Below, one piece after another: positions 9,231 to 9,620 of a stretch of DNA of 64,000 bases (positions within the stretch are counted from its first letter, which is position 1; each line of letters starts with the position of its first letter). Location of the stretch: assembly GCA_023819145.1 (NCBI GenBank), contig JAMWCW010000003.1, forward strand, positions 4,321 through 68,320, given 5' to 3'. The translations under genes and the position numbers were made by a program. The notes under the pieces are model-generated. The model saw only the letters and a list, made by a program, of their open reading frames with translations. It did not search any database and was not told the origin of the DNA. The DNA comes from Candidatus Omnitrophota bacterium (GTDB lineage Bacteria > Omnitrophota > Gorgyraeia > DTHP01).

Positions 9231-9620
9231 GTGGAGATTACAGAGGTAAGAATACTTTTAAAAAGCAGGGATAAAGCAAATCGTAAGTTGAAAGCATATG
9301 CAACAGTTACTTTTGATAATGTATTTGTAGTGAGGAATATAAAAGTTATTGAAGGTAAACAGGGTCTCTTTGTAGCTATGCCCTCGCGCAAAATTCAATT
9401 CCTCTGTCCTAAGTGTGGTCATAATAATGCCATACACAGCCGGTTTTGTAACCAATGCGGACAAGCTTTAGAATCCCAACAACCGGTTAGTTCCGATAGG
9501 ACTCCTTTCGAGCGCCAGACAGAGCATCGAGATATTGCCCATCCCATCACTCAGGAGTTCAGGGAATATCTTCAGAAAAAGGTTTTGGAGGCTTACGAGA
9601 AAGAGATTAAGGCAGGCTAA
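9231..9620 (+). CDS. spoVG: SpoVG family protein with internal CxxC-x10-CxxC zinc-ribbon insertion
   Basis: GTG at 9231 preceded by AGGAGG; VEITEVRI...KLKAYATVTFDNVFVVRNIKVIEGKQGLFVAMPSRK core then CPKCG...CNQCG insert then RDIAHPI tail; ORF track start 9168 overlaps ispE. Confidence 0.8.
   Translation: MEITEVRILLKSRDKANRKLKAYATVTFDNVFVVRNIKVIEGKQGLFVAMPSRKIQFLCPKCGHNNAIHSRFCNQCGQALESQQPVSSDRTPFERQTEHRDIAHPITQEFREYLQKKVLEAYEKEIKAG

Follow-up and report, generated by a model that had tools for sequence, protein, structure and literature searches.

The gene at positions 9231–9620 on the forward strand of the window (the whole 64,000-nt stretch of Candidatus Omnitrophota DNA that was analyzed) encodes a SpoVG protein with a zinc-ribbon insert. 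Few small nucleic-acid-binding regulators are as widespread in bacteria as SpoVG, whose mechanism is still debated with respect to both the ligand (DNA or RNA) and the mode of binding (specific or non-specific). The insert is already known as an indel; what is new is that it is a strictly conserved Cys4 ribbon, that it occurs outside Planctomycetota, and where it lies relative to functionally mapped residues. Within a conserved stretch of SpoVG, a ‘large, 32-36 aa insert’ was presented as a Planctomycetes-specific conserved signature indel, ‘not found outside Planctomycetes’, in a study that mentioned neither zinc nor cysteine and to which OP3/Omnitrophica genomes were not available (Gupta, Bhandari and Naushad, 2012, Front Microbiol 3:327; PMC3444138). 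The window insert is the same insert at the same site, and Planctomycetota loci carry the identical CxxC-x10-CxxC motif. Literature searches combining SpoVG with zinc ribbon, finger or binding, or with Omnitrophica, returned no paper discussing the insert as a zinc ribbon or testing its function, and the one paper that mentioned both deals with TcaA in S. aureus; public databases already tag many such proteins with PF13240 or PF12773 beside PF04026.

SpoVG core and locus

The spoVG coding sequence, of the PVC type with a zinc-ribbon insert, spans 129 codons plus a stop and starts with GTG at 9231; a Shine-Dalgarno sequence (AAAGGAGG; 9216–9223, forward strand), evident on inspection, precedes the start codon by 7 nt. 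An in-frame TTG at 9168 was rejected as a start; 9231 is the real one, because the ORF from this TTG would overlap ispE and the homologues begin at MEITEV. The nearest deposited protein, named ‘SpoVG family protein’ by NCBI, comes from a Candidatus Omnitrophota MAG and is 94% identical to the window protein. Scanning of 8800–10000 for promoters and terminators gave chance-level results only, including a promoter-like site at 9446–9474, inside the insert-coding region, in which 9 of 12 positions matched and which was not considered meaningful.

The protein matched the Pfam SpoVG family (PF04026) with 103.9 bits against a cutoff of 29.6 (E = 5e-30), residues 1–124 covering positions 1–82 of the 82-position profile. 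Its score with the NCBIfam equivalog for the septation regulator SpoVG (NF009749) was 94.4 bits in two matched stretches, below the cutoff of 108, which fits the name ‘SpoVG family protein’ used by NCBI. Alignment to the PDB SpoVG chains 2i9x, 2i9z, and 2ia9 also resulted in two matching blocks, window residues 1–54 and 97–124, and in those chains the two blocks stand just 3 residues apart. The N-terminal beta-sheet domain (residues 1–54; 9231–9392, forward strand) aligned to residues 4–54 of the PDB chains and ends in the basic doublet R53-K54, while the C-terminal segment (residues 98–129; 9522–9617, forward strand) aligned to residues 58–85 and contains the EH-RDIAHPI motif and the alpha-helix. 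Hallmarks of SpoVG were found on both sides of the insert, with R53-K54 following AMPS and R100-D-I-A-H-P105 preceding the helix; doublet positions 53 and 54 were K or R in 94 and 99%, respectively, of 332 homologous sequences. Both segments were recovered in an AlphaFold2 model built on a 41-sequence alignment (mean pLDDT 72, pTM 0.54), which placed strands at residues 3–10, 20–28, 32–41, and 46–49, and a helix at 108–128. When the full-length model was searched with Foldseek, the top 10 matches were all SpoVG crystal structures, 2i9z and 2ia9 first, with a probability of 1.0 and TM-scores of 0.61–0.77 normalized to the target. The initial annotation had read the N- and C-terminal parts as matching canonical SpoVG, and the Pfam match over residues 1–124 together with the two PDB-chain blocks bears this out.

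The locus is ordered ispE, spoVG, tRNA-Gln(UUG), glmU, prs, L25/ctc, and pth, which is the classical SpoVG neighbourhood, with all of these genes on the forward strand. Upstream lies ispE (8306–9202; TIGR00154, 207 bits), and the tRNA-Gln(UUG) gene (9702–9774; ARAGORN) sits between spoVG and glmU (9817–11067; NCBIfam equivalog TIGR01173), beyond which come prs (11064–12008; NF002320), rplY/ctc encoding L25 (12018–12725; TIGR00731), and pth (12783–13334; TIGR00447), these also assigned by NCBIfam equivalogs. In 73 of 80 related loci, the gene immediately upstream of spoVG was ispE, and a tRNA-Gln gene was at the same position in all 15 tested loci, which came from Omnitrophota, Auribacterota, Desantisbacteria, and PVC-group genomes. 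The full cluster was retained in Omnitrophota, Auribacterota, and Desantisbacteria, and Planctomycetota retained ispE-spoVG only. No second or canonical SpoVG paralog was found by tblastn within the 64,000-nt window. The canonical ispE-spoVG-glmU-prs-L25-pth arrangement identifies the gene as an ortholog rather than a paralog; it is the organism’s ordinary, vertically inherited SpoVG and not a recent fusion, and within this window the spoVG gene itself is unremarkable.

Anatomy and relatives of the insert

Canonical SpoVG, represented by the proteins of Bacillus subtilis (2IA9), Staphylococcus epidermidis (2I9X/2I9Z), S. aureus, Listeria monocytogenes, and Borrelia burgdorferi, belongs to the same Pfam family and has a fold of a five-strand sheet and a C-terminal helix. 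Canonical and window proteins have in common the basic doublet after ‘AMPS’, the RDIAHPI motif, and a locus with ispE upstream and glmU-prs-ctc-pth downstream. However, where canonical SpoVG has a 6-residue turn, the window protein has a zinc ribbon and a linker: 45 residues lie between ‘MPSRK’ and ‘RDIAHPI’, compared to 6 (TPDGEF) in B. subtilis, so that the net insert is about 39 aa.

The C4 zinc ribbon occupies residues 56–80 (9396–9470, forward strand) and is supported by a Pfam match, by conservation and by the AlphaFold2 model. Its motif is C59-P-K-C62-x10-C73-N-Q-C76, with the cysteine codons at 9405–9407, 9414–9416, 9447–9449, and 9456–9458, and it is accompanied by N66, F72, N74, and G77. 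These four are the sole cysteines of the protein and, judging from the motif and the family, would together hold one Zn2+. From there a flexible linker (residues 81–97; 9471–9521, forward strand), recognized by its AlphaFold2 pLDDT and by its variability among 332 sequences, returns the chain to the SpoVG helix. Pfam Zn_Ribbon_1 (PF13240) matched residues 59–80 with 26.4 bits against a cutoff of 25, covering two CxxC knuckles. An insert of about 40 aa containing a C4 zinc ribbon between AMPSRK and RDIAHPI had been proposed in the initial annotation, and both its size and its kind held; the motif given there, ‘CPKCG-x10-CNQCG’, is present, except that the gap counted after the G is x9, a trivial slip. 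The double zinc ribbon family (DZR, PF12773) was rejected at 26.4 bits against a cutoff of 27.3, with only positions 1–23 of its 45-position profile matched, leaving a single ribbon. Membership of the RanBP2-type fingers (PF00641) was also rejected (11.9 bits against a cutoff of 27, leading Trp absent, Foldseek E-value non-significant); the RanBP2-like spacing C-x2-C-x3-N-x6-C-x2-C and its Asn are present in the window ribbon.

Residues 56–80 were modelled by AlphaFold2 as a small two-hairpin element with a pLDDT of 68–83, and residues 84–104, with a pLDDT below 50, were taken as disordered linker. Modelled alone, the insert had a pLDDT of 74, and its local superpositions in Foldseek were to RanBP2/NZF-like C4 ribbons and related ones (probability 0.9–0.99, rmsd 0.5–1 Å over 24–28 aa), matches that are individually non-significant (E = 0.09–1), as expected of so small a domain. 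Fold neighbours included eL40, RadD, Trabid NZF1, Nup153, RanBP2, the MDM2 C4 finger, and ZRANB2 bound to ssRNA; RBM5 and RBM10 were two further ssRNA-binding fingers among them. At the level of sequence profiles, the insert matched the DZANK1 double zinc ribbon (1.7e-10), RadD (1e-3), and eL40 (1.5e-3).

The rRNA-bound archaeal ribosomal protein eL40 (CMKCNARNAIRATRCRKCG) superimposed on the insert with an rmsd of 0.9 Å over 25 aa and 36% identity at its E-value of 1.5e-3, and the zinc ribbon of the Escherichia coli DNA-repair helicase RadD with an rmsd of 0.5 Å and 36% identity. Both are parts of machinery that handles nucleic acids and resemble the insert in how the cysteines are spaced, in the Asn, and in some of its basic positions, but their sequence E-values are marginal (∼1e-3), their context differs, and there is no sign of a shared function. 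Bacterial ribbons of the Zn_Ribbon_1/DZR type (PF13240, PF12773; DZANK1 in PDB 11xu) share the CPxCG-x9-FCxxCG signature and the conserved Asn, whereas the window ribbon is single and nested inside another domain, rather than terminal or tandem like those modules. Fingers of the RanBP2/NZF type (ZRANB2, RBM5, Nup153, Trabid, MDM2) resemble the insert in Cys/Asn spacing and in the two-hairpin fold, but their leading Trp is without counterpart in the window ribbon. Judging from an alignment to the ZRANB2 finger, the RNA-stacking Trp that recognizes GGU is probably absent, as is the T-F dipeptide of the NZF fingers.

Conservation and distribution of the ribbon

Conservation was evaluated over 332 non-identical homologous segments with 45–94% identity to the window protein. 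Whether the cysteines are conserved among close relatives had been set beforehand as a test of the ribbon, and all four were present in 100% of the 332 sequences; such invariance over this range of identity shows that the Cys4 motif is not a chance occurrence. N66 was conserved in 97%, F or Y at position 72 in 96%, and G77 in 93%, while K or R occupied positions 61, 65, 69, and 71 in 75, 89, 79, and 86% of sequences, respectively. The 18-residue ribbon core was constant in length throughout, and the linker ranged from 14 to 35 aa (median 22), was variable in sequence, and was rich in R, A, G, E, P, and S. The constant core length and the conserved basic positions indicate that selection has acted on features besides metal binding. 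N66, F72, N74, and G77, which make up much of the conserved pattern, are found in DZR-type ribbons generally and may serve structure alone. The window’s own sub-lineage has N65 and H69 in place of the family consensus K and R, making its ribbon less basic than average.

The CxxC-x10-CxxC motif was at the same position in 120 of the 120 closest database homologues (62–94% identity), in which the named organisms were Candidatus Omnitrophota or ‘PVC group’. An exhaustive HMMER search of 1.84 billion representatives of 50%-identity clusters gave 5302 hits at E ≤ 1e-3 and 1705 at E ≤ 1e-10, and among the best 150 of the 5302 hits the motif was found in 148. The two motif-less representatives were a four-fold tandem SpoVG (P0127) and a tandem canonical SpoVG (P0193), and have no bearing on the finding; a further hit (P0270) was rejected as a SpoVG relative, being a tandem zinc-ribbon array that lacks a SpoVG domain and was matched through the ribbon only. 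Most of the 1705 hits at E ≤ 1e-10 are probably insert-bearing, an estimate and not a count, because canonical SpoVG scores ∼54 bits with the window query, which scales to E ∼1e-9 in the searched set. Estimated by such E-value scaling, up to about one third of the SpoVG sequence clusters could be of the insert-bearing form.

A scan of GTDB with one genome per species identified at least 600 SpoVG-encoding stretches, and in all of the 80 loci that were kept the motif lay exactly 14 residues after G-x-FVAMPS. These 80 loci belonged to Omnitrophota, Planctomycetota with every major order represented (Pirellulales, Gemmataceae, Isosphaeraceae, Thermoguttaceae, Phycisphaerae, Sedimentisphaerales), Candidatus Auribacterota, Candidatus Desantisbacteria, and one ‘PVC group bacterium’. 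The insert was present in two Auribacterota loci (L030 and L032, including Ca. Theseobacter) and one Desantisbacteria locus (L013), and the Isosphaeraceae loci included closed genomes of cultured Singulisphaera and Tundrisphaera. Insert-bearing SpoVG of Planctomycetota has in addition disordered tails of 100–350 aa, which are absent from the window protein. Three MAGs labelled Alcaligenaceae, Actinomycetes, and Bacteroidales carry a planctomycete-type SpoVG, and are probably mislabelled or misbinned.

Judged from top-ranked lists that are saturated with insert-bearing sequences, the insert is the standard form of SpoVG in Omnitrophota, Planctomycetota, Auribacterota, and Desantisbacteria. The rarity implied by the initial annotation did not survive, since the Cys segment is common among SpoVG homologues (120/120, 148/150, and 80/80 in the three sets) and was published in 2012 (PMC3444138). 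Exclusivity to Planctomycetes, as claimed in that same study, no longer holds either, because the insert, a Cys4 zinc ribbon, also occurs in Omnitrophota, Auribacterota, and Desantisbacteria. Within the PVC group it could be useful as a marker of the rare-genomic-change type. Among the sequences retrieved, the insert-bearing protein also appears to be the only form of SpoVG available to Planctomycetes and Omnitrophota, in which regulators are poorly known.

Possible functions of the ribbon

The DNA-binding elements of SpoVG have been defined experimentally. In S. aureus SpoVG, DNA binding requires K50-R51 (R53-R54 in B. burgdorferi), DNA sequence specificity is set by a six-residue stretch in the C-terminal helix (S66–E71), and the basic doublet and the helix are modelled as lining a pocket (Jutras et al., 2013; PMC3688583). 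SpoVG has also been argued to be a global regulator that binds primarily RNA (Burke and Portnoy, 2016; PMC4959528). By alignment, the equivalents in the window protein are R53-K54 and about T107–E112, and the insert (residues 55–97) is located between these elements, beginning one residue past the doublet and stopping about 10 residues before the helix stretch.

The best-supported reading, held tentatively and at somewhat less than even chances, is that the ribbon touches nucleic acid as an accessory contact, at the edge of the SpoVG pocket. It is favoured by where the insert sits, by the conserved basic and aromatic residues of the ribbon, and by the solved relatives in proteins that handle rRNA or DNA. 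SpoVG is a small global regulator that forms multimers and binds RNA and DNA. In its PVC-lineage form, a Cys4 zinc ribbon of ∼25 residues and a flexible linker of ∼20 residues leading back to the helix stand in for the short turn that otherwise joins the last beta-strand to this helix. As in characterized SpoVGs, the R53-K54 doublet would contact the nucleic-acid backbone and the helix would set sequence preference, while the ribbon would hang at the rim of the known binding pocket and present, family-wide, the basic positions 61, 65, 69, and 71 and the aromatic position 72. Such a contact may extend the footprint, raise affinity or alter preference, and the SpoVG multimer would have one ribbon per side. 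The altered or added binding specificity expected in the initial annotation is plausible in view of the site of the insert (PMC3688583). The placement of the ribbon relative to the pocket is deduced from linear order only, as its orientation in the AlphaFold2 model is of low confidence. Also weighing against a nucleic-acid contact are the frequency of protein binding in this fold class (NZF, RanBP2, MDM2), the less basic ribbon of the window’s own sub-lineage, the probable lack of the GGU-recognizing Trp, and the resemblance of much of the conserved pattern to DZR-type ribbons at large. A zinc ribbon between two experimentally defined binding elements offers a ready-made probe of how SpoVG engages nucleic acids.

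Possible, but on the unlikely side, is that the ribbon is a protein-docking module making no contact with nucleic acid and recruiting SpoVG to the ribosome, RNA polymerase, an RNase or SSB. Several fold neighbours are docking fingers, namely the ubiquitin-binding NZF fingers of Trabid, TAB2, and HOIL, the Ran-binding zinc fingers of Nup153/RanBP2, and the C4 finger of MDM2, which binds RPL11; yet the NZF ubiquitin-binding signature is absent, and these are bacteria without ubiquitin and Ran. The long disordered tails of the Planctomycetota proteins contain short conserved motifs typical of protein-interaction peptides, and genetic interactions link spoVG of L. monocytogenes to RNase J1, Rho, and NusG (PMC4959528), but no partner gene co-occurred beyond housekeeping synteny across the 80 related loci. 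Docking also sits poorly with the location of the insert between two elements shown to bind DNA (PMC3688583), and with conserved exposed residues that are mostly basic, as would be expected of a nucleic-acid contact more than of a docking patch, which is typically hydrophobic.

A bolder version of nucleic-acid binding, which is unlikely, holds that the ribbon is an independent ssRNA-reading knuckle, making PVC SpoVG a bipartite reader to which both the zinc finger and the SpoVG pocket contribute, and that the insert had a single origin uniting Omnitrophota, Auribacterota, Desantisbacteria, and Planctomycetota. If this were true, PVC bacteria would use a distinct global post-transcriptional regulator, and the combination in Planctomycetota of the ribbon with disordered tails rich in R, G, and P would recall the eukaryotic RNA-binding proteins that pair zinc fingers with RGG regions.

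Quite unlikely is a neutral or merely stabilizing elaboration that was fixed once and whose removal would be destabilizing, with SpoVG working as it does in Firmicutes. The insert does fit the pattern of a classic conserved signature indel that became fixed in a deep clade (PMC3444138), many of its conserved positions are structural ones that DZR-type ribbons have in general, and the linker is variable and disordered. Neutrality is nevertheless difficult to reconcile with surface-type, non-ligand basic positions that are 75–89% conserved among sequences only 45–60% identical overall, and with an 18-residue core of the same length in all 332 sequences.

Some bacterial regulators use Cys4 zinc sites as thiol switches, and the site could in principle sense redox state or zinc availability, with oxidation or zinc loss unfolding the ribbon and changing SpoVG activity under stress. 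Stress is indeed linked to SpoVG in Firmicutes, through the sigma-B operon (cited in PMC3444138). Such a switch is very improbable given that the same site occurs in strict anaerobes (many Omnitrophota) and aerobes (Isosphaeraceae, Pirellulales) and that nothing in the sequence sets it apart from ordinary structural zinc ribbons.

An artefact, whether through a motif arising by chance, through mis-assembly or through a wrong reading frame, is excluded by the single uninterrupted ORF with its Shine-Dalgarno sequence and by the occurrence of the same architecture in hundreds of independent assemblies, the closed Singulisphaera and Tundrisphaera genomes among them.

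Translation start and gene order around spoVG

The spoVG gene was found to start at the GTG codon at window position 9231, based on alignments with homologues and the presence of a Shine-Dalgarno sequence. An in-frame TTG at position 9168 would mechanically yield an ORF of 150 aa, overlapping the 3' end of ispE, whose stop lies at 9202, yet this extension (9168–9230) was ruled out by the same alignments and Shine-Dalgarno sequence.

Directly downstream of spoVG was a tRNA-Gln(UUG) gene (window 9702–9774). It occupied the same site in all 15 loci tested from Omnitrophota, Desantisbacteria, Auribacterota and the PVC group among L001–L030, the handles denoting GTDB species loci with an insert-bearing spoVG; examples are L002 (4500–4572), L013 (2670–2744) and L030 (4849–4922). 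The gene order ispE-spoVG-tRNAGln-glmU-prs-L25-pth is very stable in these groups. The tRNA gene was found downstream of spoVG in none of the three Planctomycetota loci tested (L040, L054, and L059).

Further along the window, glmU and prs overlapped by 4 bases (11064–11067), with the GTG start of prs lying inside the glmU stop region, and this overlap suggests translational coupling within the operon. Transketolase was split into two separate genes (window 6441–7268 and 7364–8296), encoding an N-terminal and a C-terminal half, each of which matched the corresponding half of the transketolase model NF004559.

Ribbon composition and C-terminal tails

The immediate sub-lineage of the window protein (database homologues P0001–P0015, 'CPKCGHNNAIHSRFCNQC') carried N65 and H69 in the zinc ribbon. 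Over 332 non-identical segments of SpoVG carrying the zinc-ribbon insert (SpoVG-Zn), position 65 was K or R in 89% and position 69 in 79%; compared with the consensus, the sub-lineage thus has a less basic ribbon.

Planctomycetota SpoVG-Zn proteins had low-complexity C-terminal tails of 100–350 aa with a high content of P, R, E, D, G and A, whereas the window protein and most Omnitrophota proteins had none. Tails were seen in P0138, P0151 and most cluster representatives of 200–470 aa, as well as in the Planctomycetota loci L027, L035, L038, L041, and L059. They contained two short conserved motifs: (S/D)(E/D)Y(D/N)xLIA(D/N)L lies a short distance beyond the SpoVG helix, and PFG(A/E)GI is terminal. 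Both look like putative protein-interaction peptides.

Taxon labels and unusual homologues

Three loci (L037, L045 and L068) came from GTDB species-representative MAGs labelled Alcaligenaceae, Actinomycetes and Bacteroidales, and their genes were of planctomycete-type SpoVG-Zn, with ispE upstream. These contigs are probably mislabelled or misbinned, rather than true occurrences in the three taxa.

The homologue search also retrieved proteins of unusual architecture. P0270 (675 aa) consisted of many tandem DZR-type zinc ribbons without a SpoVG domain, P0127 (388 aa) of four tandem SpoVG domains without the zinc ribbon, and P0193 (149 aa) of two tandem canonical SpoVG copies.
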